Shown: in pieces, positions 16,484 to 62,433 of the stretch
Layout: each line of letters starts with the position of its first letter
Position numbering within the stretch: position 1 is the first letter of the stretch
Source of the DNA: an uncultured Clostridia bacterium
Lineage (GTDB): Bacteria > Bacillota > Clostridia > UBA1212
Direction of reading: 5' to 3'
Length of the DNA: 64,000 bases
Assembly: GCA_947304585.1 (NCBI GenBank)
Contig: CAMZBI010000003.1
Location: 34,811-98,810, forward strand
The notes under the pieces: model-generated
What the model saw: the letters and a program-made list of their open reading frames with translations, nothing else
Databases searched by the model: none
Told to the model about the DNA's origin: nothing
Program-made: the position numbers and the translations under genes

Positions 16484-17770
16484 ATGAAAAAAGGTTTTTC
16501 ACGAACTATCTGCTTTTTGATCGCTGCAATAATTCTCTCCGGCATTGTGCTCATTCCTTTCAATGTCATTGAATCCGCAGCATTCAACAAAGCAACCGCC
16601 AATTCGATTGCAGGCAACACAAGGCTTGGCAGCATTAAAGCTAAAGCCTATGCCTCGATGTATTTCGATTCCGGCGAGGTCTCTTTTATGAGTGAAAACG
16701 CCCACGAAAAATTTTCCGTCGGCAACCTCATTAAACTAATGACGATTTACCTTGCCTTCGAAGCGGTAGAGAAGGGCGATACCAGCCTTAAATCCGGCGT
16801 CAAAGTTTCAAAAGCTGCTCAGAACATCTCTGTCGGAAAGGAAAGAGTCTTTCTCGACAGCGGCAAAGGCGAAGTCATAACCGTTGAAGAAGCCGTTATT
16901 GCAATGATCGCAGGCTCCGCCAACGACGCCGCCTATGCTCTCGCAGAGCACATTTCCGGTACCACCGAAGGCGATTTTGTGGACATGATGAACAGGAAAG
17001 CCGCTGTTCTTGGCCTTAACGACACCCACTACGTGGACTCCACAGGTCTCAAGATCATCACCGACGGCCAGTACACCAGCGCCTACGACCTCTGTATGCT
17101 CTCCTACAGGCTCATAAAAGACTTCCCTGCAGTTCTGAATTACACCCGTATCACCTCCGGTACTTTCGTTCACTCCTCCACAGGACAGCCCGACACCAAC
17201 ATGCAAAGCTCCAACGCTCTTGTATACTCCGGCATGCTGGAAGGTGCCGACGGTCTTCTTGTAGGTTACTCCAACGCAGACCTCTACGCCCAGGCAGCCT
17301 CCGCAAAGATCGGTGACGAGCGCACGATTGCCGTTGTTATAGGAGAAAAAACTCCCGAAGACCGTGCCGGCGAGCTCAAATATCTTCTTGAAATGACAGC
17401 CAGAGTCTTCGAATGGCGCGAGCTGGACAAAGAAGGCACCTATGTCAGAATGATCTCCGTCAAAGACGGCAAGACACTTAAAGTCAAAACCGTTACCGGC
17501 CAGTCCCTTGACTATATCGCCAACACCAATGAAAAATACACCGTCGAAAAGAAGATAGTTCTCGACGGCGTGATCGAAGCCCCCGTCTCAAAGGGCGACA
17601 TCGCCGGCAAGGTCGTATACCAGAAGGCCTTCTCCCAGCCCGACGGCACTAAAACCTATGAAGAAATCGGCAGCGTTGATCTGATTATTGACGAGGACGT
17701 GGACCGGGCAGGGTGGTTCCTGCGGTTCCTGCGAAGGATATTGGAATTCCTTGGGTTGATGCAGTATTAA
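16484..17770 (+). CDS. D-alanyl-D-alanine carboxypeptidase homolog (peptidase S11/PBP5 fold) with degenerate catalytic motifs
   Basis: Overall DacA/DacF pattern (KLMT, GSANDAAYALAEH, MNRKAAVLGL, TSAYDL, PBP5 C-terminal domain). SxxK position reads NLIK and KTG position reads LVG. Confidence 0.85.
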   Translation: MKKGFSRTICFLIAAIILSGIVLIPFNVIESAAFNKATANSIAGNTRLGSIKAKAYASMYFDSGEVSFMSENAHEKFSVGNLIKLMTIYLAFEAVEKGDTSLKSGVKVSKAAQNISVGKERVFLDSGKGEVITVEEAVIAMIAGSANDAAYALAEHISGTTEGDFVDMMNRKAAVLGLNDTHYVDSTGLKIITDGQYTSAYDLCMLSYRLIKDFPAVLNYTRITSGTFVHSSTGQPDTNMQSSNALVYSGMLEGADGLLVGYSNADLYAQAASAKIGDERTIAVVIGEKTPEDRAGELKYLLEMTARVFEWRELDKEGTYVRMISVKDGKTLKVKTVTGQSLDYIANTNEKYTVEKKIVLDGVIEAPVSKGDIAGKVVYQKAFSQPDGTKTYEEIGSVDLIIDEDVDRAGWFLRFLRRILEFLGLMQY

Positions 17771-17802
17771 TGAAAATAAGCTGCGGGGTGACGGTATTGC
17801 GC

Positions 17803-17894
17803 AGTGAACAGATTACAGTGTATAGTCATCAGTTAGCAGAATACAGTTAAGAATTAACAGTGTAAAATTTTACAGTTGACAGTGTACAGTTAAC
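17803..17894 (+). repeat. Heptamer array B (about 13 units)
   Basis: agtgaac agattac agtgtat agtcatc agttagc agaatac agttaag aattaac agtgtaa aattttac agttgac agtgtac agttaac. Confidence 0.85.
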
Positions 17895-17929
17895 GCTTGA
17901 CAATTATTGTTACAAGATTTTAATTACAG

Positions 17930-17957
17930 CAGCCGTTGGCAATTGGCACGGCTGTTT
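17930..17957 (+). terminator. Putative intrinsic terminator after the dac-like gene
   Basis: CAGCCGT...ACGGCTG stem followed by TTT. Confidence 0.5.
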
Positions 17958-17984
17958 AAATTTTGACAAAACTCAAAATACCAC

Positions 17985-18013
17985 TTGAAACAAATATTCC
18001 GCTGTGGTATAAT
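17985..18013 (+). promoter_or_regulatory. Near-consensus sigma-A promoter of the four-helix-bundle gene
   Basis: TTGAAA-17 bp-TATAAT with an extended -10 TG. Confidence 0.75.
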
Positions 18014-18226
18014 TGTTCCGAAAAGAGATGAAGTTCTCTTTTCTTATTCAGATCTTCGTGCCGAGGCTTTTGTTATTTGAACTTTACTGAGTGCACATTT
18101 ATGGTAAAGCCAAATAATCCTATTCGGAACAGAAACGAACCGGCCAATCGTTTTTGGAGAAATACTTTAAGCTCAAGGGATTTGATTACAGGTATTATTG
18201 ACAGATTGAACAAGGAGGAACTATTT

Positions 18227-18592
18227 ATGAGTCATTCAGAACTATTGAACAGATCATATGATTTTGTAATTGATATTACTAATCTTGCAGGAGTGCTTAA
18301 GGAAAGAAACGAATATTTAATTTCAACCGAAATTTGCCGATCGGGAATAGATGTCGGCGTAAATATCTATCAGGCACAGCATGCTGAAAGTATCGAAGAC
18401 TTTTCGCATTATCTTTCGGTTGCTCTGCAGAAAGCGAACGTCACGGATTACTGGCTGAAATTGCTTCTAAACTCCGGAGATATCGATGAGGTCACATATA
18501 AACGGATCAATAAAAATTGTTCTGATATCATGAGGATGCTAATCTCTGCAGTTAAGACAACCAGGAAAAAGATGGGCAGATATAATCCATGA
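18227..18592 (+). CDS. Four helix bundle protein (TIGR02436 / 23S rRNA IVS protein / Avd-like family)
   Basis: Pattern RSYDF...EICRSGIDVGVNIYQAQHAES..DFSHYLSVALQKANVTDYWLKLL matches the family consensus (QLLRSGTSIGANxxEAQxAxSxxDFxxKLxIALKEAxETxYWLxLL). AAGGAGG RBS before ATG 18227. Confidence 0.82.
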   Translation: MSHSELLNRSYDFVIDITNLAGVLKERNEYLISTEICRSGIDVGVNIYQAQHAESIEDFSHYLSVALQKANVTDYWLKLLLNSGDIDEVTYKRINKNCSDIMRMLISAVKTTRKKMGRYNP

Positions 18593-18644
18593 ATTGACGA
18601 TCATGCGTAAATCGTGCTTCTGTTTTCTAAGAAAAGAAATCGCG

Positions 18645-18704
18645 GCGCCGTCAAAAATACAGCGCCGCACCGCAACTCATCACTGTCCACGCTCAACAAT
18701 TCAC
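18645..18704 (-). repeat. Heptamer array C plus GC hairpin
   Basis: Minus strand from the stop of the M50 gene: agtgaat tgttgag cgtggac agtgatg agttgcg gtgcggc, then GCGGCGC...GCGCCGC hairpin. Confidence 0.75.
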
Positions 18705-19382
18705 TCATATAATCGCACTGAAAGGAATTGTCCAGATCGTTGTGAACAGGCTTGAGAGAAGCGAAGCAGGATAGAAGATTATTTCGCCAAGGTTGGTCAG
18801 TCTCATAAGAATTATAAAACCAAGGTAGACGAAAATACTGTATCGTTCAACCTTGTAGAGAAAACTGTTCCATTTGTAAGGGGTGAAGGTCGTTATGATC
18901 TTGTAACCGTCAAGGCCCGGGAGGGGCAGAAGGTAGAAGATTGCAAGGATCAAAGGGTAATACTGGGCGTAATAAAAAAGGAGTGATATATAGTATAAAA
19001 CCTGTGACTCGGCACCGTTCTTCAAGTAGAGAAGGTTCAGCGGAACGTAGATCATTGAGATTAGAAAGCTGGTTGCCACAAGGGTGAGAGAGCCCGAAAG
19101 ACAGTAAAGCACAGTATCTCTTTTATAATGCTTGTAGTAAGTGCTGTTTGTAGGCATTGGTTTCGTCCAGCCGAAGTGGAAGATTATCATGCAGGCAAGA
19201 CCGATCCAGTCGATGTGGTTGATCGGGTTCATAGTAAGTCTTCCGTTGTTTTCGGGTGTTGGGTCGCCGAGCCATTTTGAGACAAGTGCCTGGCCAAAGC
19301 CTTTTGCCGTGAAAGCAAAGATTATGCCAGGAATTGAGATCAGCATGCCTATCAGTGCGGTTGGTGAAAAAAGATCTATCAT
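18705..19382 (-). CDS. Site-2 protease (M50) family membrane protein lacking HExxH
   Basis: LGDPTPENNGRLTMNPINHIDWIG, FGWTKP and LLPLPGLDG are family hallmarks; the HExxH position reads KGFGQ. Confidence 0.82.
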   Translation of the reverse strand: MIDLFSPTALIGMLISIPGIIFAFTAKGFGQALVSKWLGDPTPENNGRLTMNPINHIDWIGLACMIIFHFGWTKPMPTNSTYYKHYKRDTVLYCLSGSLTLVATSFLISMIYVPLNLLYLKNGAESQVLYYISLLFYYAQYYPLILAIFYLLPLPGLDGYKIITTFTPYKWNSFLYKVERYSIFVYLGFIILMRLTNLGEIIFYPASLLSSLFTTIWTIPFSAII

Positions 19383-31722: not shown

Positions 31723-32748
31723 ATGAAGGGCAATTTTTTTCTTGGAAATAAGAGTTTTGAAGTTCGTCCGCTGACAGAGAGGGCTCTTTCGGAAGGCGAA
31801 GTTCTTGTCAAAGTAGCTGCCTGCGGTGTCTGCGGAACAGACGTGCATATCTATCATGGGGACAAAGGATCTGCGGAAGTTCACCCTCCGGTGGTCCTTG
31901 GCCATGAGTTTTCGGGTATAGTTGAAGCCATTGGCGCGAGTGTTACTACAGTCAAACCCGGGGACAGGGTAACAGTTGACCCAAATATTTATTGCGGCAA
32001 GTGTTATTTCTGCAGGACCGGAAAAAAGCAGTCCTGTACAGGGCTTCAGGCCATTGGCGTAACGATGAACGGAGGCTTTGCCGAATACTGCTACGTCCCC
32101 GAGAGCCAGTGTTTCCTGCTTTCGCCTGACGTTTCGCTTAGGGCCGGTGCGATGACTGAGCCCCTTGCCTGCTGTCTTCACGGAATCGACAAAGCCGGCA
32201 TCAGGGCAGGTGACAGCGTTTGTGTTATCGGCGGCGGTGCCATTGGCCTTATGATGGTCCAGCTTGCCAGACTCTCCGGCGCTTCCAAGATCATTTTGAG
32301 CGAACCTGTTGAATTCAGGCGCAGGATCGGGCTTGAACTTGGAGCGGATCACGCCATCGATCCCTTTGCAGGACCTGTTTCGGAACAGATTGGAAGTATT
32401 TTACACACACCCGGTGCGGACGTTGTGATCGAGTGCGTCGGCAATACCGCTGCAACCTCGCAAGCCTTTGAAGCCGCCAACGACGGTGCAACAGTTCTTC
32501 TTTTCAGCGTCCCGAAAGCGAATACATATCATCCTTTGAGCCTTGAACAGGTATTTCAGAAGGAACTTAAGATCATTGGCTCCAGGATCAATCCTGATAC
32601 TCATTTGAGGGCCGCCTCGTTGATCAACAGCGGAAAGATAAAGTTTGACAGGCTGATCACCCACAGTTATCCATTGGAGCAACTGCAGGATGCAATCATT
32701 AAACAAACGGAAAACGATTCAATAAAAGTAATTGTGGAGCCGAATTAG
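31723..32748 (+). CDS. Zinc-dependent medium-chain alcohol/sugar-alcohol dehydrogenase
   Basis: CGVCGTD, GHEFSG, CGKCYFC...C structural zinc, GGGAIG. Confidence 0.9.
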
Positions 32749-32843
32749 TTAAGAGTGAACAGTTAAGAGTAATTAGTTGACTGCGTGAGAAGTACCTTTG
32801 CTCTTCAAGCGCACTGAGATGCAAACTCCTGACTTAACTAGCC
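32747..32843. repeat. Heptamer array D starting within the ADH stop codon, with a weak inverted arm
   Basis: agttaag agtgaac agttaag agtaatt agttgac (32747-32781). The reverse complement of ~32833-32853 reads agttatt attggct agttaag. Confidence 0.7.
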
Positions 32844-41170: not shown

Positions 41171-42940
41171 ATGATCGCAAGAAGAATTATAATCGGAATA
41201 CTGTTTATACTTTTTATACTCCTGCTGGAACTTTCTTCAAATACTCTTTGGGGCGTGTTCCTGGCAGGGGCCGTGTTTGCAGGTTTTATACTTTTCACCG
41301 AAATCGGCGTATCAAAAGGGCGGCCCTTTGTCGCAGTGATCTCCTGGGTGATCTTTTTGGTGGCGCTGGTGCTTGTGTATATAGTCTCCTATCCGCCTGT
41401 GAAGCGTGTTAAAGCATTTGAGGGCAGCAAAGTAAAAACTGACGTTGTTGAGATCTCAGACGGAAAAGTTACAGGAGTAGTCAACAAAGATGGCACCTGC
41501 GAGCTTTTTGCAGGCATCCCCTACGCCAAGGCACCGGTTGGCGATCTTCGCTGGAAAGAGCCTCAGGACCCCGACAAGTGGGACGGAGTGCGTGAATGCG
41601 ATACTTTTGCGCCAATGTCAATGCAACCCAGAAACCCAAGCATCTATTACAGCCTTGCCCAGATAATCGGTTTCCACGATTACAAATGGTTCGATTTTTC
41701 CGACAACTATATGCCGGAAGTATCTGAGGACGCTCTCTATGTCAACCTGTGGAGACCGACCGGTGCGAAAGTGGGCGATAAGCTTCCTGTCCTTGTCTAC
41801 ATTCACGGTGGATCCCTTCAGACAGGTCAGCCCTGGTATGAGGATTACAGAGGAGAAAACCTTGTAAAAGACGGAATCATCGTTGTGAACATGGGCTACA
41901 GACTTGGAGTATACGGCTTCCTTGCACTCGATGAACTTGCAAATGAATCCCCAAGCGGCACCACCGGCAACTACGGACTTCTAGACCAAATCAAGGCACT
42001 TGAGTGGGTCAGGGACAACGTCGGATATTTTGGCGGTGATCCCGACAACGTTACATTGGCGGGAGAATCAGCGGGAGCTGCATGCGTCAGCGCACTCTCC
42101 GTGTCACCCCTTGCCAAGGGACTGTTTAAAAGGACTGTGCTTGAAAGCTCAACGGTAGCGCCAATAAATCCCCCGCATTCCTTCAGACTCCTTGACGAGG
42201 CATTGTCTTCCGGGAGGAGGGCGATGGAAAAGGTTGGCGCCGGAAGTATTTCTGACCTAAGAGCTCTTCCCGCAAAAGCACTCACAGGCCTATACACATC
42301 CGAGCATCACATCACAGTCGACGGCTACGTTCTGCCGGATACACCGTATAATCTATACAAGAAGGGCGAATATAACGAAGAGGCGATCTTCCACGGTTTC
42401 AACAAAGAGGAAAGCGCCGCCTTTATAATGTTTACAAAGACCGATATAGAGAGTTTCAGAAGAAAAGTGAAGGATTACTTCGGAGATCTTGCGGACGATG
42501 TGTTTGCGGTATACGATCCTTCTGACGATGCAGAGGCGGACACCATGTGGTCCGAGATCTACGGAGCGGTGTTCTTTGATTATCCCCATTACTGTCTAAA
42601 CAGACTGGCAGTCGAAAACGGGATTCCGGTCCACGAGTATTTATTTTCAAAAACCAACGGGAGACTTGGATGCTGGCACAGCGGTGAAGAGGTCTACTTG
42701 TACGCCAATATCCCCTCAGACTCTAAACTTTATGATGCCAATGACAGAGAAGTTATGGACAAAATGTCACGTGCACTGCTCGATTTTGTTAAATACGGTG
42801 ACTGTTCGTTGACTCTTAAGGAATGGAAACAAAACACAGATTCAATATCTTATATGAATTTCGGTGATGAAATAAAGATGATCACAGAATCCGAGAGAAA
42901 GCAGGCGCTTTATAAAATACTGGATGAAATGAACAGTTAA
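41171..42940 (+). CDS. Type-B carboxylesterase with N-terminal TM anchor
   Basis: GIPYA, SEDALYVNLW, IHGGS, YRLG, GESAG (Ser), FNKEES (Glu), WHSGE (His). Confidence 0.9.
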   Translation: MIARRIIIGILFILFILLLELSSNTLWGVFLAGAVFAGFILFTEIGVSKGRPFVAVISWVIFLVALVLVYIVSYPPVKRVKAFEGSKVKTDVVEISDGKVTGVVNKDGTCELFAGIPYAKAPVGDLRWKEPQDPDKWDGVRECDTFAPMSMQPRNPSIYYSLAQIIGFHDYKWFDFSDNYMPEVSEDALYVNLWRPTGAKVGDKLPVLVYIHGGSLQTGQPWYEDYRGENLVKDGIIVVNMGYRLGVYGFLALDELANESPSGTTGNYGLLDQIKALEWVRDNVGYFGGDPDNVTLAGESAGAACVSALSVSPLAKGLFKRTVLESSTVAPINPPHSFRLLDEALSSGRRAMEKVGAGSISDLRALPAKALTGLYTSEHHITVDGYVLPDTPYNLYKKGEYNEEAIFHGFNKEESAAFIMFTKTDIESFRRKVKDYFGDLADDVFAVYDPSDDAEADTMWSEIYGAVFFDYPHYCLNRLAVENGIPVHEYLFSKTNGRLGCWHSGEEVYLYANIPSDSKLYDANDREVMDKMSRALLDFVKYGDCSLTLKEWKQNTDSISYMNFGDEIKMITESERKQALYKILDEMNS

Positions 42941-42978
42941 CAGCAGAAAGTGAACAGTTGTAGTGCGGTCAAAGCCGC
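42928..42978 (+). repeat. Heptamer array E overlapping the esterase stop codon
   Basis: aatgaac agttaac agcagaa agtgaac agttgta gtgcggt, then GCGG-tcaaag-CCGC mini-hairpin. Confidence 0.7.
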
Positions 42979-43016: not shown

Positions 43017-44021
43017 ATGACCAACAGAGACAGAGTCAATGCGGTATTGAACTTCGAAAAGCCTGACGACAGACTGCCGATGATCGAATGGGCGGCCTGG
43101 TGGGATAAAACCATAAACAATTGGCGTCAACAGGGTCTGCCTCAGGAACTGAACTGGGATACCATTGGGCCTTATCTCGGCCTTGACAGGCAGAAACAGT
43201 ACTGGCTACCCCACAAGAAATTTGACTGCCCGCAGCCCCAGAGGGAGGGTGGGCCGATTGCAGAGGACGAGGATGAATACGAGGAACTGCTTCCGTATCT
43301 CTATCCCGATAACGATTGGGTGTTTCAGGAACTTACTAGGCTTAAACCCGAGCACGAGAAGGGCGATCTGCCGATTTGGTTTTCCCTTGACGGAGGCTTC
43401 TGGTTTCCGAGAACCATACTGGGTATTGAAAACCATTTATATTCGTTCTACGACCAGCCGGAGCTGTATCACAGGATACTTGACGACCTGGCGGAGTTTC
43501 AGCTGAAGCAGCTTGACAGAATGTACAAGATCGTAACGCCGGACTTTATGACTTTTGGCGAGGATATGAGCTACAACAACGGGCCAATGATATCCGAGGC
43601 ATGTTTTGACGAATTCCTGCTGCCGTATTACAGAAAAGTTATTCCGTTTATAAAAGAGCACGGCACCAAGGTAATCGTCGACTCAGACGGCGATGTCACA
43701 AGGATGATCCCCTGGCTTAAGAAAGCGGGAATTGAAGGAGTGCTGCCGCTGGAACATCAGGCAGGCGTTGACGTCAACAAACTGAGAGCAGACCATCCGG
43801 ATTTCCTGTTCATCGGAGCTTTTGACAAGATGACCATGAGGATCGGCAAGGACGAGATGCGGGGCGAGTTTGAAAGACTGCTGCCGGCAATGATAACCGG
43901 AGGATTCATTCCAAGTGTCGATCACCAGACTCCGCCGGATTGTCCGCTGGAAAGATATCGGGTTTACGTTGACATGTTGAGGGAATATGCGGAAATAGCT
44001 GTTAGGCTTTGGAGTAAGTAA
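43017..44021 (+). CDS. Uroporphyrinogen decarboxylase / MtaA-CmuA-like TIM-barrel protein
   Basis: MTNRDRV start, FGEDMSYNNGPMISEACFDEFLLPYY, DSDG, GAFDK, GGFIPSVDHQTPPD. Confidence 0.75.
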   Translation: MTNRDRVNAVLNFEKPDDRLPMIEWAAWWDKTINNWRQQGLPQELNWDTIGPYLGLDRQKQYWLPHKKFDCPQPQREGGPIAEDEDEYEELLPYLYPDNDWVFQELTRLKPEHEKGDLPIWFSLDGGFWFPRTILGIENHLYSFYDQPELYHRILDDLAEFQLKQLDRMYKIVTPDFMTFGEDMSYNNGPMISEACFDEFLLPYYRKVIPFIKEHGTKVIVDSDGDVTRMIPWLKKAGIEGVLPLEHQAGVDVNKLRADHPDFLFIGAFDKMTMRIGKDEMRGEFERLLPAMITGGFIPSVDHQTPPDCPLERYRVYVDMLREYAEIAVRLWSK

Positions 44022-44068
44022 TTATTAGTGAATAGTTAATAGTGATAAGTGCTCAGTTGCAGTGCGCC
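44017..44068 (+). repeat. Heptamer array F
   Basis: agtaatt att agtgaat agttaat agtgata agtgctc agttgca gtgcgcc. Confidence 0.78.
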
Positions 44069-44238: not shown

Positions 44239-44244
44239 CGTTTT

Positions 44245-44310
44245 GTTCACTGTCTACCATTCACTAATCACTAATAACTTAAAACAGTTCACTAATAACT
44301 AATCACTAAG
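44245..44310 (-). repeat. Heptamer array G directly after the argS stop
   Basis: Minus strand: agtgatt agttatt agtgaac tgtttta agttatt agtgatt agtgaat ggtagac agtgaac. Confidence 0.85.
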
Positions 44311-44311
44311 T

Positions 44312-46030
44312 TTACATTTTCTCAACAACTCCGACGCCGATGAGATTCAGCGCCTCTTTTATGCAAACAGTAACAGCTTCAATGAAGCAAAGTCTTGCAG
44401 CTCTTATATCTTCATCAGATTTTAAAACGTTTGTAGAGTTGTAAAATTTGTTGAAAGCTTTGCACAGCTCAATTATGTATCTTGTAACTATATAAGGTTC
44501 ATTCTTTGATGCCGCGTCGCGAACGACGGACTGCAACTTCATCAGTATTTTAACTATCTGGTATTCCTGATCGTCTGTCAGAAGTTCCAGTTTGACGTTC
44601 TTATAGGAAATCCCCATTTCAAAAGCTTTTCTTAAAACGGATCTGCCTCTGGCATACGTGTATTGTACGTACGGTCCGGATTCGCCTTCAAAATCCAGCA
44701 TTTTGGACAGTTCAAACACTATGTCCCGTTCACGGCCGTTTTTCTGGAATTCGAACAAGACGGCTCCTATACCGATAGTATTGGCGGCTTCGTCAATATT
44801 ATCGATTTGGCTTGCGGTCCCACTTTCGGTGATGATCTCTTTGGTCTTGGCAATTGACTCGTTAAGAACGTCTTCAAGAAGCACAACGTCACCGTTCCTT
44901 GTGGACAGAACGCGGTCCGGGAACCTTACGTAGCCGAATCCAACATGCTCGCAGTCGTCAGCCCAGTCAAAGCCCATCATCTTCAAAACTGTGAAAACCT
45001 GTTTGAAATGCAGCGCCTGGGGCGTTCCCACAACGTAGATGTTCTTATAAAAGTCATAGTGGCGCTTCCTGTAAAGAGCCGCGGCAATGTCCCTTGTTGC
45101 ATAGATGGTGCTGCCGTCGGACTTCAATATAATGCAAGGCGGCATATTTTTATCTTCGAATCGTACAACCTTGGCGCCGTCAGACTCCTCTAAAAGGCCT
45201 TTTTTGCCTAAAATATCCACAATTTCAGGCATTTTATCGGAATAAAAGCTTTCACCGGCAAATGAATCGAAATGAATGTCCAGCAGGTCGTACATCCTGT
45301 TGAACTCTTTGAGAGACACTTCGACGAAGAACTTCCAAAGGGCGGTGACCTCAGGATCGCCCTCCTCCAGCAGCTTGAAATTTTGGCGGGCCTCGTCTTC
45401 AAGCGCGGGATCCTCCTTGGCTTCAGAATGAAATTTTACGTAAATTTTCAGCAATTCATTGATTGGGTCCTTCTCGATGGTCTCCCGGTCTCCCCAGCGT
45501 TTGTATGCGCTTATAAGCTTGCCAAACTGGGTTCCCCAGTCGCCGATGTGGTTGATCCTTACAACGTCGTAGCCGAGAAAATCATAGATTCTCGAAAGAG
45601 AATTGCCAATGGCTGTCGAGCACAGATGACCGATATGGAATGGCTTAGCAATGTTGGGGGATGAATACTCAACAATGACCTTTTTGCCAGCGCCCTCCTC
45701 GCTGCGGCCGTAATTTTCACGCTGAATAAGAATCTCCTGAATGACCGTTTTTGAAATGATCATCCGGTTGAGATAAAAATTCAGATAAGCGCCCACAACT
45801 CTGATCTCAGAGAAGAACTGCTTGAATTCGCTTTCTTCAATGGCAGTTTTGAGCGATTCTGCGACTTCCTTGGGATTTCTTCCTTTTATAAGTTTAAAGC
45901 AAGGTAGCGAAAAGTCGCCAAGCTTCTCATCCGGCGGCACGGCAATGAGACTCTGTACCAATTCTTCAGTCACGGAGGAATCGTTTACGCTTGAAACAAT
46001 TATTTCGGTTAAGATTTTCTTTATATCCAT
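44312..46030 (-). CDS. argS: Arginine--tRNA ligase
   Basis: EYSSPNIAKPFHIGH, NHIGDWGTQFG, YATRD, GESGPYVQY, DALR anticodon-binding domain. Confidence 0.97.
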   Translation of the reverse strand: MDIKKILTEIIVSSVNDSSVTEELVQSLIAVPPDEKLGDFSLPCFKLIKGRNPKEVAESLKTAIEESEFKQFFSEIRVVGAYLNFYLNRMIISKTVIQEILIQRENYGRSEEGAGKKVIVEYSSPNIAKPFHIGHLCSTAIGNSLSRIYDFLGYDVVRINHIGDWGTQFGKLISAYKRWGDRETIEKDPINELLKIYVKFHSEAKEDPALEDEARQNFKLLEEGDPEVTALWKFFVEVSLKEFNRMYDLLDIHFDSFAGESFYSDKMPEIVDILGKKGLLEESDGAKVVRFEDKNMPPCIILKSDGSTIYATRDIAAALYRKRHYDFYKNIYVVGTPQALHFKQVFTVLKMMGFDWADDCEHVGFGYVRFPDRVLSTRNGDVVLLEDVLNESIAKTKEIITESGTASQIDNIDEAANTIGIGAVLFEFQKNGRERDIVFELSKMLDFEGESGPYVQYTYARGRSVLRKAFEMGISYKNVKLELLTDDQEYQIVKILMKLQSVVRDAASKNEPYIVTRYIIELCKAFNKFYNSTNVLKSDEDIRAARLCFIEAVTVCIKEALNLIGVGVVEKM

Positions 46031-46033
46031 AGC

Positions 46034-46179
46034 AGTTAATAGTATTTAGTGAATAGTGTATGGTGGATTCGCAAGTTAATAGTTAATAGTGAAGAGTAAA
46101 ATAGTGGTTGTGCGTTTTGCATTTTTATTTGCGTGGAGCGCAAAATCACTGTTCACTAATCACTCTTCACTAATCACTA
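46034..46179. repeat. Heptamer-array element H: inverted arms filling the leuS-argS spacer
   Basis: Plus arm agttaat agtattt agtgaat agtgtat ggtggat..agttaat agttaat agtgaag. Minus arm (from the leuS TAG) agtgatt agtgaag agtgatt agtgaac agtgatt. Confidence 0.85.
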
Positions 46180-48600
46180 AATAATAATATTCACCAGGCT
46201 GCCCGGAACCGCGATCACCTTTCTGACCTGTTTTCCGGCGATAAGGCCTTTTACGGTCTCGTCTTCTAACACATAATCAGCCAGAGCGGCTCTGTCGAGG
46301 CTTGTGGGAACGTTGATCCTTGCCTTGATCTTGCCGAGGATCTGTATGGCGATCTCAACTGTCTCGGAAACAGTCTTAGACTCATCGCATACGGGCCAGG
46401 CCTGCTCGTGAACGTATCCCTTAAGCTCCAGAGCTTCCCACATTTCCTCGCAGATATGCGGGCAAACGGGATAGAGAAGCTTTATAAGGGCCGCCAGATC
46501 GCCTTTGGAGGGATCGCCCTTGGCGTAGAAGTCGTTCACAAGGGCCATCATCGAGGCTATGGCTGTGTTGTATTTCATCTTCTCGTAGTCTTCGCTCACT
46601 TTTTTAATAGTGATGTTGACTGCTTTTTCGTGGGTCTTGGAGATGGCGGTGTCGGGGGTGACTTTGCCCATCAGTTTCCAGACTCTCTCCAGGAATCTGT
46701 AGCAGCCCCTCGCACCGTCGGTGGACCAGGGAATCGGCTGGTCAAATGCGCCCATAAACATCTCGTAAAGCCTGAAGCTGTCGGCGCCGATCTCCTTGAC
46801 AATGTCGTCGGGATTGATTACGTTTCCCCTTGATTTAGACATTTTCTCACCGTTTTCGCCAAGGATCATTCCGTGAGACGTACGCTTGATATAAGGCTCC
46901 GGACAGGGGACGACGCCAATGTCGTAAAGGAATTTGTGCCAGAACCTGGAGTACAGAAGGTGCAGCGTGGTGTGCTCCATGCCGCCGTTGTACCAGTCGA
47001 CGGGGAGCCAGTATTTCATGGCCTCCTGGCTTGCAAGAGCGTCATTATTGTGGGGATCCGTATACCTTATAAAATACCAGGAGGATCCGGCCCACTGTGG
47101 CATTGTGTCGGTCTCACGCTTGGCGGGTTTGCCGCAGCAGGGGCAGGTGGTGTTTACCCATTCGGGAACGTTCACGAGTGGCGATTCGCCGCTGTCGGTC
47201 TGAACGTAGTTTTCAACCTCAGGGAGAAGCAGGGGCAGGTCTTTCTCGTCAAGAGGCACGTATCCGCAGTCGTCGCATTTTACAACCGGAATAGGCTCGC
47301 CCCAGTATCTCTGGCGGCTGAACACCCAGTCTCTCAGCTTATAGTTGACTTTGCCGGTGCCGATGCCCTTCTCTTCCAGATATTCGATGATCTTAGCCTT
47401 GGCGTCCGTGACAGAAAGACCGTCAAGAAAGCCGGAGTTGATCATTATGCCGGTCGCGATATCGGTAAATGCGGACTCGCTGATATCGCCGCCGCTGACC
47501 ACTTCAATGATGGGTATGTTGAACTTCTTGGCAAATTCGTAGTCTCTGTCGTCGTGGGCGGGAACAGCCATGATGGCGCCGGTGCCGTAGGAGCTGAGGA
47601 CGTAGTCGGAAGTCCAGACAGGGATTTCCTTGCCGTTTACGGGGTTGACAGCGCGGATGCCTTTGAGTTCGACACCGGTCTTTTCCTTGGCAAGTTCAGT
47701 GCGTTCGAACTCGGATTTTCTTGCCGCAGCATCTCTGTAAGCCGCAACCTCGTCGAAGTTTGTGATCTTGTCCCTATATTTGTCAATGAGCTTGTGCTCC
47801 GGTGAAATGACCATGTATGTGGCGCCGAAAAGGGTGTCGGGTCTTGTGGTGAACACTCTTATAAAATCGTCTTCTCCTGCGACTTTGAAATCAACTTCTG
47901 CGCCTGTGGAGCGCCCTATCCAGTTTCTCTGCTGGATCTTGACCTTCTCGATGAAATCAACAGTATCAAGGCCGTCGATGAGCTTCTGGGCATACTCGGT
48001 GATCTTCAGCATCCACTGGCTCTTGACTTTTCTCACCACTTCGCCGCCGCATCTCTCGCAGACGCCGTTGACCACTTCTTCATTGGCAAGACCGACTTTA
48101 CAGGAGGTGCACCAGTTTATGGGCATCTCGGCTTTATAGGCAAGGCCTGCTTTAAAAAGCTGGAGGAATATCCACTGGGTCCAGTGATAGTACTCGGGGT
48201 CGGTGGTGCTGACCTCGGAGGTCCAGGTAAAGGAGAAGCCCAGCATCTTAAGCTGCTTTTTGAACCTTTCGATATTATTCTTTGTGACTATCTCGGGATG
48301 GATCTTGTTTTTGATAGCAAAATTTTCCGTAGGAAGTCCGAAAGCGTCCCAGCCTATGGGGAAAAGCACGTTGAAGCCTTCCATCCTTCTTTTACGGCAA
48401 ATAATATCCATAGCGGTGTTGGACCTGGGATGACCCACGTGAAGGCCGTTGCCGGAGGGATACGGGAACTCGATCAGACCGTAAAACTTCGGTTTGGAGT
48501 GATCCGGAGAGGGTTCAAAAGTCCGGTTGTCTTCCCAGATCTTCTGCCACTTCTTTTCGACTGAAGCAGGATTGTAAGCGCCAATATCATTATGACCCAT
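46177..48600 (-). CDS. leuS: Leucine--tRNA ligase
   Basis: [28 protein letters not shown] (editing domain), [17 protein letters not shown]. Confidence 0.97.
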
Positions 48601-59646: not shown

Positions 59647-60485
59647 TAAATATTCTTTTCTGCGGCAACGAAGGGGTTTTTGACGGTGTTCTCACCTGCA
59701 TGCTTTCGATCCTGAAAAGGACCGAAACGAAGGAGCCCTTTAAGTTCCACGTCTTCACTATGGATCTTACTGATCTTAAGCCAAACTATACACCGGTAAC
59801 GGAAGACCACAGGAAGTTTCTTGAGGACATTGCCAAAGAATACAACGGCGAAAACACCGTGGTTCTTTTTGACGTCACGGAGCTTTACAAAGAACATTTT
59901 TCCGGATGCCCCAACGAGAGCGCATACTGCTCGCCCTATACGCTTATAAGGCTTCTTGCGGATCTGGTGCCCGGGCTTCCCGACAAAATGCTCTACCTTG
60001 ACACCGATATTATGTTCAACAGGGACGTAATGCTTCTTTATAACATTGACGTTGAGGATTACGAATACGCAGCGGGCCGCGATCACTACGGGAAATATCT
60101 GATCAACCCCAATTACATCAACGCCGGGGTTCTCCTCTTCAACATGAAAATGATGCGTGAGACCGGCATATTTGCCAAGGCGAGAGACTGGCTCCGCAAA
60201 AAGAAGCTGGTGTTTGCCGACCAGAGCGCGCTTATAAGATCCACAACAAAGAAAAAGATGCTGCCCCAGCGGTTCAACGACCAGAAGTTCCTTCACAAGC
60301 ACACCGTTGTAAGACACTTTTCGAAGAGGCTCTTCTGGCTGCCCTACCCCCACACCGACAATATTAAACAGTACCACGTGACCAAAGTCCACAAGGTCTT
60401 CAGGTATTTCGTCTTTGACGACATACTTTTTGAATACATCTATCTGAAGAAAACTTTTGACAAGCAGCAGAGCGGCAAACTCTGA
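59643..60485 (+). CDS. Glycosyltransferase family 8
   Basis: RLLADL, YLDTD (DxD), INAGVLLFN, DQSAL, VRHF. Confidence 0.87.
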   Translation: MINILFCGNEGVFDGVLTCMLSILKRTETKEPFKFHVFTMDLTDLKPNYTPVTEDHRKFLEDIAKEYNGENTVVLFDVTELYKEHFSGCPNESAYCSPYTLIRLLADLVPGLPDKMLYLDTDIMFNRDVMLLYNIDVEDYEYAAGRDHYGKYLINPNYINAGVLLFNMKMMRETGIFAKARDWLRKKKLVFADQSALIRSTTKKKMLPQRFNDQKFLHKHTVVRHFSKRLFWLPYPHTDNIKQYHVTKVHKVFRYFVFDDILFEYIYLKKTFDKQQSGKL

Positions 60486-60507
60486 GATCATACGAAAGGA
60501 ATTACTT

Positions 60508-62286
60508 ATGAAAAAAGCCGTAATACCGATTTTTTACGCCTGCGACGATAACTTCGCCAAATACACCGCCGTGTCCATCACCTCTCTGAAGGAACACGCA
60601 ACAGCTGATTTTGAATACGACATCCATATACTTAACGCCGGCCTCTCGCCGGAGACTGTTCAAATGTTCAGAAACCTGGAGTCTTCCGAGATCAGGCTGA
60701 TCTTTGTTGACGTGTCTGACTACCTGCTGAACGTTTCCGAAAAACTGCCCCTCAGGGACTATTATTCCCGGACCACGTATTACAGGATGTTCATTGCCGA
60801 GATGTTCCCGGAGCTTACAAAGGCCATATACATCGACAGCGACACGGTGATTTTGAGGGACGTTTCGGATCTTTACTATACGGACATTGGCGACTGCTTC
60901 GTCGGCGCCTGCCACGAACAGGTAATGGTGCAGATCGACACCTTTGGCACGTACGTTGAGAAAGCCCTTGGCCTTTCAAGGTACAGTTTCTTCAACGCCG
61001 GTATCCTTCTCATAAACTGCGAGGAGTTCAGGCTCCATTTCGTCCTCGACAAATTCATATACTACCTCAGACTCTACAATTTTGTGGTCACCCAGGACGA
61101 GGACTACCTGAACGTCATCTGCAAGGACCACGTTTTCTGGCTTAACCAGCGGTGGAACACTCAGACGCTTGATTACATTCCCTTCCCCATTGACGAGGCC
61201 AGGATAATCCACTACTGCCTCTACAACAAGCCCTGGCACTACGCCGACACAAAGCACGGAGACATTTTCTGGAACTACGCCAAAAAGACCGAGGTATATG
61301 ATATACTTAAGCAGGAGCTGGAGTCGTACACCGACGAGCAGAAGGCGAAGGACGTACAGGGTGCAGAGAACCTGTTAAAGCTTGCAGATACAGAAACCCA
61401 CAAGGAGGACAATTTTCTCAATATGGTCAACGAACAGCACAGATCATCCGACAGAGTGGAGATCGTCAGAAAGATTGAAGAATTTGAAAAACGGGGCAAT
61501 TTCTTTGAGGACGTGGAAAATGATCCGCCCTCCAAAGAACTCTTGCCAAACGAGATCGATTACTACAGAAAAGGCATTGTCCAGAAGATACAGACAAAGT
61601 TTGCGTTTATCATCGCCCACAGATACGTTAAAAGTCTGATAGCGGAGAAGAAGTTCATACTGAAGGCGATAAAAGGCATTGAATATTTCAAAAATCTGGA
61701 TTCCGGTGCGGTGATAACATGCAACCACTTCAATGCCGCAGACAGCTTTGCGATCCAGCTGACTTATGAGGCCGCAGACCAGCCCAAGAGGAAGTTTTAC
61801 AGGGTAATCAGAGAAGGAAACTATACCTCGTTCCCAGGCTTTTACGGCTTCCTGATGAGAAACTGCAACACCCTTCCCCTCTCCTCCAACAAGGAGACCA
61901 TGAAGAAATTCATCAGGGCCACTGACCAACTTCTCAAAGAGGGCAACTTCGTACTGATATATCCCGAGCAGGCCATGTGGTGGAACTACAGAAAGCCAAG
62001 GCCCCTTAAGAGAGGTGCATTCGTATTCGCTGCGAGAAACATGGTGCCGGTGCTGCCCTGCTTCATAACAATGAAAGACTCGGACAACATTGACGGCGAC
62101 GGGTTCCACATTCAGGAATACACTGTAAACGTGGCGCCGCCAATATATCCCGACCCGTCGCTTTCCGAAAGGGAAAACACAAAGATGCTGATGGAGAAAA
62201 ACTCCGCCATTTGGAAGGATATTTACGAACTGACCTACGGAATACCGCTCAGCTACACCTGTGATACGGAGAACAGTGAGCAGTGA
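60508..62286 (+). CDS. Fusion: GT8 glycosyltransferase plus C-terminal PlsC-like acyltransferase
   Basis: GT8: YYRMFI, YIDSD, FNAGILL, QDEDYLN, IIHYCLYNKPW. Acyltransferase: CNHFNAAD (HX4D), LIYPEQAMW, VPVLPCF. Confidence 0.87.
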   Translation: MKKAVIPIFYACDDNFAKYTAVSITSLKEHATADFEYDIHILNAGLSPETVQMFRNLESSEIRLIFVDVSDYLLNVSEKLPLRDYYSRTTYYRMFIAEMFPELTKAIYIDSDTVILRDVSDLYYTDIGDCFVGACHEQVMVQIDTFGTYVEKALGLSRYSFFNAGILLINCEEFRLHFVLDKFIYYLRLYNFVVTQDEDYLNVICKDHVFWLNQRWNTQTLDYIPFPIDEARIIHYCLYNKPWHYADTKHGDIFWNYAKKTEVYDILKQELESYTDEQKAKDVQGAENLLKLADTETHKEDNFLNMVNEQHRSSDRVEIVRKIEEFEKRGNFFEDVENDPPSKELLPNEIDYYRKGIVQKIQTKFAFIIAHRYVKSLIAEKKFILKAIKGIEYFKNLDSGAVITCNHFNAADSFAIQLTYEAADQPKRKFYRVIREGNYTSFPGFYGFLMRNCNTLPLSSNKETMKKFIRATDQLLKEGNFVLIYPEQAMWWNYRKPRPLKRGAFVFAARNMVPVLPCFITMKDSDNIDGDGFHIQEYTVNVAPPIYPDPSLSERENTKMLMEKNSAIWKDIYELTYGIPLSYTCDTENSEQ

Positions 62287-62379
62287 AGAGTAATAAGTTA
62301 AGCGTGAACAGTGAAGAGTAATCAGTTAAGAGTGAACAGTGAAGAGTGATTAGTTAACAGTGATTAGTGAAAAGTGATT
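62275..62379 (+). repeat. Heptamer array I (15 units, with a 28-bp higher-order repeat)
   Basis: agtgagc agtgaag agtaata agttaag cgtgaac agtgaag agtaatc agttaag agtgaac agtgaag agtgatt agttaac agtgatt agtgaaa agtgatt. Confidence 0.92.
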
Positions 62380-62388
62380 AAAGAAAAG

Positions 62389-62433
62389 ACCCGGGCTTTC
62401 AGAATTTTAGATCTGACGCCCGGGTGATTTTTT
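62389..62433. terminator. Probable bidirectional terminator
   Basis: ACCCGGGC/GCCCGGGT stem, A-rich left flank and T-run on the right. Confidence 0.65.

Follow-up and report, generated by a model that had tools for sequence, protein, structure and literature searches.

The junction and its four-helix-bundle gene

The window analysed here is a stretch of 64,000 nt from an uncultured Clostridia bacterium of the rumen (contig CAMZBI010000003.1), and all position numbers refer to it. At 17771-18704 it contains a junction of 934 bp between two convergent genes, which code for a D-alanyl-D-alanine carboxypeptidase and for an M50-like site-2 protease. The junction carries a gene for a four-helix-bundle (4HB) protein of 121 aa and two facing arrays of degenerate 7-nt repeats, array B on the plus strand and array C on the minus strand, which form the arms of the insert. 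An earlier note on this DNA, called the original prediction in the following, had described a 4HB gene with a near-consensus promoter and ribosome binding site (RBS) between these two arrays. This description was confirmed by the profile matches to PF05635 and TIGR02436, by a promoter with 11 of 12 matches and by the matrix scores of both arrays.

The insert shows the order arm, terminator, promoter, leader, gene, terminator and inverted arm (Table 1). ORF (open reading frame), promoter and RBS are all intact. The arms abut the host stop codons or provide them: the carboxypeptidase gene ends 25-30 nt upstream of array B, and the stop codon of the M50-like gene is contained in the first unit of array C, GAGTGAA. 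Both arms lie beyond the 4HB transcription unit; their distance from the 4HB ORF is 332 nt on the upstream and 80 nt on the downstream side. For the terminator inside the left arm a fold of -15.2 kcal/mol (z -2.45) was calculated. The insert insulates itself by inward stops in all frames, by a terminator for the host transcript inside each arm and by its own promoter. Since the internal terminators substitute for the ancestral one, the 3' ends of the host genes remain intact.

In the 4HB leader a terminator-like hairpin with a T-run was observed at 18054-18066 (+), about 35 nt past the predicted transcription start. This hairpin might serve as an attenuator or mark where a short RNA ends. The leader gave zero matches in Rfam, and a riboswitch or other structured leader was rejected on the basis of this result and of the fold of the leader (z -0.66). 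At the other side of the gene, the stretch 18632-18684, which comprises the terminator and the inner end of array C, was found with about 85% identity in contigs of other organisms from bovine and goat gut runs. These contigs continue into TCACTAA-type arrays. A similar inner arm boundary is evidently common in rumen metagenomes.

Table 1 Features of the junction and further heptamer arrays in the window
Feature	Position	Strand	Remarks
D-alanyl-D-alanine carboxypeptidase (PBP5-like), left host gene	16484-17770	+	PF00768 (1.3e-41), PF07943; syntenic in L001-L005
Array B, left arm	17795-17907	+	about 13 degenerate heptamers; in 3' untranslated region (3'UTR) of carboxypeptidase gene
Intrinsic terminator of left host gene, internal to arm	17928-17965	+	hairpin followed by UUUAAAUUUU
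Promoter of 4HB gene	17985-18013	+	TTGAAA-17-TATAAT, extended -10 TG; 11/12 matches
5' leader, about 205 nt	18020-18226	+	RBS AAGGAGG at 18212-18218, 8 nt 5' of ATG
4HB gene, 121 aa	18227-18592	+	PF05635/TIGR02436; ATG at 18227, TGA at 18590-18592
Intrinsic terminator of right host gene, internal to arm	18641-18669	-	11-bp stem, then T-run
Array C, right arm	18672-18706	-	5 units: GAGTGAA, TTGTTGA, GCGTGGA, CAGTGAT, GAGTTGC
Site-2 protease (M50-like) membrane protein, right host gene	18705-19382	-	profile matches, alignment with orthologues
Gene-less facing pair	44005-44060 / 44239-44315	+ / -	between convergent genes; interior with two terminators, no gene
Gene-less facing pair	46026-46107 / 46138-46193	+ / -	between two co-directional minus-strand genes; arms z -3.61
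Longest array, 15 units	62267-62392	+	begins in last codons of gene 60457-62286; strong terminator after it
Single array	32732-32787	+	overlaps stop of gene 31723-32748
Single array	42927-42961	+	overlaps stop of gene 41171-42940
Array in divergent promoter region	2242-2283	+	sole exception among the ten arrays to the location at gene 3' ends

The 4HB protein

The 121-aa product was assigned to PF05635 with an E value of 4.1e-16 and 59.6 bits (cutoff 33.8) and to TIGR02436 with 60.7 bits (cutoff 24). The AlphaFold2 model of the protein is a four-helix bundle with a pLDDT of 94.3 (predicted local distance difference test). Best structural matches of this model were 2RLD, with template modelling (TM) scores of 0.87/0.94 and a root-mean-square deviation of 1.1 A, and then 2GSC. 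The next matches were 8UB7 (chain E) and 4DWL (TM 0.75/0.83), both representing Avd, the accessory protein of diversity-generating retroelements (DGRs). The entries 2RLD (BT_0352) and 2GSC (XCC0516) were both deposited with five chains. The amino acid sequence places the window protein together with these two and apart from Avd, to which similarity is undetectable. We infer that the window protein forms a pentameric ring like 2RLD, 2GSC and Avd.

Homologues with more than 46% identity to the window protein were absent among 1.8 billion representatives. PADLOC gave zero matches for the 4HB protein and PHROGs one marginal, irrelevant match; a defence or phage origin was rejected, as it found no support in either database.

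Heptamer arrays in the window

A scan for AGT recurring every 7 nt detected nine arrays in the window, compared with 0.055 expected from shuffles. With a weight matrix derived from the arrays other than B and C exactly ten places were found, B and C among them. Array B scored 24.8 bits and array C 21.8 bits, and the maximum over 30 shuffled windows was 14.8. Most other arrays scored 31-47 and two minor ones (2242 and 42927) 19-23; B and C are among the weakest. The repeat unit of the window arrays is NAGTKAW. Array B is composed of CAGTNNA-type units (CAGTGAA, CAGATTA, CAGTGTA etc.) with one 8-nt slip, and it contains stops in all three frames. In array C, three clean AGT units were found among five to six.

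Eight of the ten arrays begin at most 30 nt from a sense-strand stop codon (p 5e-12), and several are then followed by strong intrinsic terminators. Other paired arrays with the geometry of B and C but without a gene, as claimed in the original prediction, were identified at two places (Table 1). At the first of them, the convergent junction 44021/44312, the arms are complementary (z -3.67).

The longest array shows a higher-order period of 28 nt at 62272-62380, corresponding to four heptamers (3.9 copies, 86% matches). This suggests that the array was recently amplified in blocks of four units. For the array at 2242-2283 a weak partner is located near 2345-2365; these arms are unpaired (z +1.3).

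Association of 4HB genes with inverted arrays

The association of 4HB genes and arrays was examined with 80 metagenomic loci carrying relatives of the subfamily nearest to the window protein, some near-duplicates included. Within 300 bp of the 4HB genes 14 AGT-type arrays were found in 44.6 kb, compared with nine in the other 422 kb. This is an enrichment of about 15-fold (binomial p 1.9e-9). Furthermore, a test independent of the repeat unit was applied, for which a 6-mer had to occur at least three times upstream of a gene and its reverse complement at least three times downstream. Such inverted repeated arms were detected for 23 of 70 4HB genes and for none of 277 control ORFs of the same loci (Fisher 3.6e-18). 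The comparison of flanks with control genes that had been proposed beforehand thus gave a positive result with both methods. The period of the arms is mostly 7, 14, 21 or 28, with about 4.4 copies per arm and typically 4-5. Inward stops in all three frames are present in 33 of 36 upstream arms and in 31 of 36 downstream arms.

Gene-less arrays at a distance of more than 600 bp from a 4HB gene contained the exact arm unit of the local gene in 10 of 57 cases; the rate for the arms of other loci was 1.2% (p 5e-9). Together with the enrichment at the flanks of 4HB genes this makes "gene-carrying form of a repeat family", the term used in the original prediction, a fair description. Down to a protein identity of about 60-70%, the arm unit is inherited together with the protein. 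This co-inheritance would fit binding or linkage alike.

For the reverse sample, a pattern of five AGTDAWN units was searched in one genome per species, which resulted in 120 loci from Cyanobacteria, Bacteroidota, Nitrospirota, Clostridia and other phyla. They include 35 inward and six outward pairs, nearly all gene-less, and the polarity of B and C is that of the inward majority (35/41). The sole 4HB gene in this sample belongs to an Ignavibacteriaceae metagenome-assembled genome (MAG) and is embedded in arrays (L015). It lies at 5006-5590 of that locus between AGT-type arrays and has an apparent N-terminal frameshift; an empty (+)/(-) array hairpin is located before it and another (-) array after it.

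Closest relatives of the cassette

Best full-length relatives of the window protein are P0053, P0201 and P0202, which are 83-84% identical to one another. Their genes are found in three unrelated contexts: between Rrf2 and acetyltransferase genes, between an unknown gene and a flavodoxin gene, and next to DUF1667. Two of the three contexts are between convergent genes. Over the three contexts the DNA is 78-85% identical along about 1 kb. The alignment takes in part of the arms, where similarity stops. First comes an arm of heptamers (AAGTAAN) with the GC-rich GGTGCCGGAC as its boundary, followed by a terminator, a TTGCAA-17-TATAAT promoter, leader, gene, hairpins with terminator and the inverted arm, as in the window. 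Order and size (0.9-1.1 kb) are common to the window insert and to these cassettes at the loci L206, L209 and L210, with DNA similarity of at most 31 nt.

At the sequence level the P0053-type gene is under purifying selection (dN/dS 0.17-0.42), and the cassettes look mobile. In the same loci gene-less copies of the arms with 90-95% identity were detected directly 3' of the stop codons of other genes. The arm copies are thus more alike than the cassette interior in L206, L209 and L210.

In L209 the right-arm region of the cassette is triplicated at 5563-5937 with a period of about 165 nt, and four tandem arm copies in the same orientation lie behind nifU at L206 250-620. Most of the 15 contigs with the Rrf2 neighbour of the P0053 cassette are short (12 with only 2-5 kb). 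Of eight Rrf2 contigs that were read, four (L215-L218, of the set L213-L218) end 25-100 nt past Rrf2, at the arm of the cassette. An empty-site version of the P0053 cassette was not found among contigs sharing the identical Rrf2 neighbour; these contigs break at the arm. Since short-read assemblies break at the arms, counts of such cassettes in MAGs are probably too low.

The empty site and the state of the window copy

Among the genes around the junction are those for TyrRS, OGG, DnaG, SigA and the carboxypeptidase on the left and for M50, DHH, SurE, HTS and GH106 on the right. Five loci of three related lineages (L001-L005) keep the order OGG-DnaG-SigA-carboxypeptidase / M50-DHH-SurE-HTS-GH106. 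Their junction measures 72-98 bp and contains a single bidirectional terminator hairpin, compared with 934 bp in the window. A 4HB gene at the junction was found in none of the five loci, nor were arrays found anywhere in these loci of about 10.7 kb. As the neighbours are the same and the relatives have only 72-98 bp between them, the filling of 934 bp is lineage-specific. In DNA runs the gene-bearing strain was found in bovine samples, and no contig bridging the junction without the gene was detected. Among RNA runs, none was found to contain the stretch.

The conservation of the window protein was examined at 38 columns conserved to at least 85% in 49 relatives. The near-invariant polar positions Q35, T41, S42, E49, K62, K68, E69 and E72 are all changed in the window protein (Q35E, T41I, S42D, E49Q, K62Y, K68Q, E69K and E72V); the hydrophobic core is retained. 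We read the window copy as old, its fold persisting and its conserved surface having drifted or changed specificity. Probably it is decaying. Judged from its sequence it is a poor candidate for an active partner of the repeats, because its arms are degenerate and most of the conserved polar residues are lost.

Interpretation of the insert and rival explanations

We favour, with moderate confidence, the reading that 17795-18706 is one lineage-specific insertion, a self-insulated cassette of the intervening sequence (IVS) type with a PF05635 gene bracketed by inverted 7-nt arrays. In the mechanism proposed for it, a pentameric 4HB ring would bind the arrays, in the form of RNA or single-stranded DNA, in their heptamer register with about one unit per subunit. 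Its own arms would be the targets in cis, and gene-less arrays of the same family at the ends of other genes those in trans. The 4HB protein may affect the processing or stability of 3' ends, or it may help the repeats to spread, like the REP (repetitive extragenic palindromic) sequences and their REP-associated tyrosine transposase (RAYT). The putative binding of the ring to the arrays was proposed because of the family-wide linkage, the usual number of 4-5 units per arm and the role of Avd in a ribonucleoprotein.

Several results weigh against the reading as one insertion of gene and arms with a functional connection. Both arms of the window are elements of the host-gene 3'UTRs outside the 4HB transcription unit, like the gene-less arrays. 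No 4HB gene was found within about 8 kb in 119 of the 120 array loci. The relatives with the empty site are distant (M50 61-70% identity) and array-free in the loci compared; hence, they cannot tell whether arms and gene came together. Neither a transposase nor a target-site duplication was seen, nor a polymorphic filled or empty site in close strains. The duplex of B and C does not surpass shuffled sequences (z -1.53; 25 of 300 shuffles were as good), and the window protein is off-consensus at 14 of the 38 conserved columns, compared with one (median) and at most six in the relatives. In addition, the gene-less pairs hold no remnant of the 4HB gene or of the cassette interior that could be detected with hidden Markov models or at the DNA level.

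In view of the last result, the reading of the gene-less pairs as deletion derivatives of the cassette, a part of the original prediction, was set aside as unsupported. An IVS-like hairpin at the window copy was likewise rejected, as the duplex of B and C is not significant.

A possible, albeit rather doubtful, alternative is that the arrays are autonomous, slippage-prone repeats of gene 3' ends, REP-like or similar to the GGGAATC repeats of Xanthomonas, and that small promoter-bearing 4HB cassettes merely insert into array hairpins or terminator regions or survive best there. No interaction of protein and repeats would take place. This explanation agrees with the location of eight of the ten window arrays close behind stop codons, followed by terminators, and with the position of the window arms in host 3'UTRs, where terminators lie between them and the gene. 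Arrays also far outnumber 4HB genes, the 35 inward pairs of the 120 loci being mostly gene-less, and the higher likeness of the arm copies compared with the cassette interior points in the same direction. However, one would need a mechanism that directs a 4HB cassette to the middle of paired arrays, and this in many phyla and with different units. The alignment of the cassette over three contexts includes part of the arms, and arm unit and protein are co-inherited to the identity given above. Furthermore, the protein family is a nucleic-acid-associated ring, with Avd in the DGR ribonucleoprotein. Landing of the cassette in array hairpins is the main rival to the spreading of arrays from the cassette.

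A coincidence is very unlikely. It would imply a stray 4HB gene between convergent genes that each have a 3' array, as at other convergent pairs. The convergent junction 44021/44312 indeed has facing arrays without a gene, and the window arms are weak, distant and non-complementary. But facing arrays occur at only two of the roughly 50 intergenic junctions of the window, one of which is the site of the sole 4HB gene. Moreover, the family-wide enrichment is very strong and the nearest relatives have the same layout. Because each arm is part of a host 3'UTR outside the 4HB transcription unit, the association was first judged to be coincidental, with arrays belonging to the flanking genes and a 4HB gene placed there by chance. 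This initial reading was overturned by the sample of 80 loci, by the reverse sample and by the arm units found again in local gene-less arrays.

That the gene codes for the Avd accessory protein of a DGR can practically be dismissed despite the structural likeness of the model to 8UB7_E and 4DWL, since the window contains no reverse transcriptase and no template or variable repeat, the neighbours are housekeeping genes, the repeat scans show heptamer arrays only, and the sequence groups the protein with 2RLD and 2GSC instead of Avd.

Beyond the favoured reading of an IVS-type insertion at this locus, a wider proposal is put forward tentatively, and as a whole we regard it as unlikely. PF05635 pentamers and inverted heptamer arrays would constitute one two-component system in many phyla, with a layout like that of REP and RAYT and no recognisable enzyme. 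The ring would read the 7-nt register (about five units) on RNA or single-stranded DNA, mark or process 3' ends of transcription units and promote the spread or upkeep of arrays with the same unit. IVSs of 23S rRNA would be copies that landed in rRNA, and the ten NAGTKAW arrays of the window would be targets in trans.

Comparison with known systems

The nearest published case is the 23S rRNA IVS of Coxiella burnetii, which contains an S23p ORF, a terminal stem of 28 bp and, before the ORF, GACAGAT heptamers in two to three tandem copies (PMC4990558). The number of these heptamers varies between strains, and the element was discussed as selfish and possibly once mobile (PMC4990558). The window insert resembles it in the PF05635/S23p ORF, the terminal inverted repeats and the tandem heptamers beside the ORF. 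ORF-bearing 23S IVSs are present in Leptospira and others as well. In contrast to them, the window insert is located between protein-coding genes and not in rRNA (Rfam found two tRNAs only), and it comes with a sigma-70 promoter of its own, a leader of 200 nt and two internal terminators. As about 770 nt lie between the arms of the window insert and their complementarity is lost, excision by RNase III in the manner of IVSs is unlikely for this copy.

Dispersed heptamer families were described for several bacteria. In Xanthomonas 186 dispersed GGGAATC arrays were reported, with 70 convergent inverted pairs in Xcc and a mean distance of 28 nt behind the upstream ORF; GGGGAYT of Nostoc is another intergenic heptamer family (PMC4692102). 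TAACTGA repeats occur in Beggiatoaceae, Cyanobacteria and Bacteroidetes, and their stops in all three frames were noted (PMC4679880). These three families are dispersed, mostly intergenic and located close behind ORFs like the window arrays, but their units differ from NAGTKAW and no 4HB partner was named (PMC4692102, PMC4679880). However, one of the listed arrays, X. campestris 622956-622983 (repeat 15, supplementary file 2), consists of four GGGAATC units and overlaps the start codon of XCC0516 (PMC4692102). This array is 6 nt from bccP, and its overlap with the gene of XCC0516, the pentamer of 2GSC, is left without comment there (PMC4692102). A survey of CRISPR lists "23S rRNA IVP" among the families linked to repeat arrays (PMC10910872). 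A general description of 4HB genes with heptamer arms was not found in the full-text literature search. This locus adds the Clostridial subtype, which has terminators inside and a promoter of its own, the comparison of filled and empty site, and a genome with frequent gene-less arrays of the same unit.

The STRR (short tandemly repeated repetitive) heptamers of cyanobacteria are further intergenic heptamer repeats. In the REP/RAYT system one protein gene is flanked by inverted copies of a short repeat, which is otherwise dispersed without the gene at the 3' ends of genes and between genes of operons. RAYT is an HUH tyrosine (Y1) transposase with catalytic motifs. The likeness to the window insert is in the layout only: the gene flanked here does not code for an HUH transposase but for a four-helix bundle of 121 aa, a small helical protein with no known catalytic site, and the window repeats are tandem heptamer arrays instead of single palindromes. 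Avd of DGRs (4DWL, 8UB7) shares the four-helix-bundle fold and forms a pentameric ring within a ribonucleoprotein; it differs by the undetectable sequence similarity and by the reverse transcriptase and the template and variable repeats, which the window lacks. For a ring that reads one repeat unit per subunit, TRAP and HutP can serve as a model, their folds being unrelated to 4HB. On RNA, the ring of TRAP reads 11 G/UAG triplets and HutP reads UAG-N4 repeats with a 7-nt period, whose register is NAG plus 4 nt like that of the window arrays.

The association would join two puzzles, the role of the widespread PF05635 "IVS protein" outside DGRs, with structures from 2006-2007, and the long-noted excess of intergenic heptamer repeats. 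Bacterial heptamer repeats, for which polymerase slippage, G-quadruplexes or unknown regulators were invoked until now, gain a candidate protein partner, and a single small protein with one short oligonucleotide would suffice to test both puzzles directly. With stops in all frames on both sides, terminators and a promoter of its own, the compact Clostridial subtype is of interest as a natural model of neutral insertion at the junctions of genes. For metagenomics it is of importance that the arms break assemblies and may be mis-called as CRISPR-like arrays.

At many Firmicutes-type loci (L127, L132-L134, L142 and L178) the arms flanking the 4HB genes consist of units of 20-23 nt. These units comprise a conserved 7-mer and a small GC hairpin of variable sequence and resemble mini CRISPR-like arrays. 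This appearance of the arms may explain why "23S rRNA IVP" was found to be linked to arrays in the CRISPR survey.

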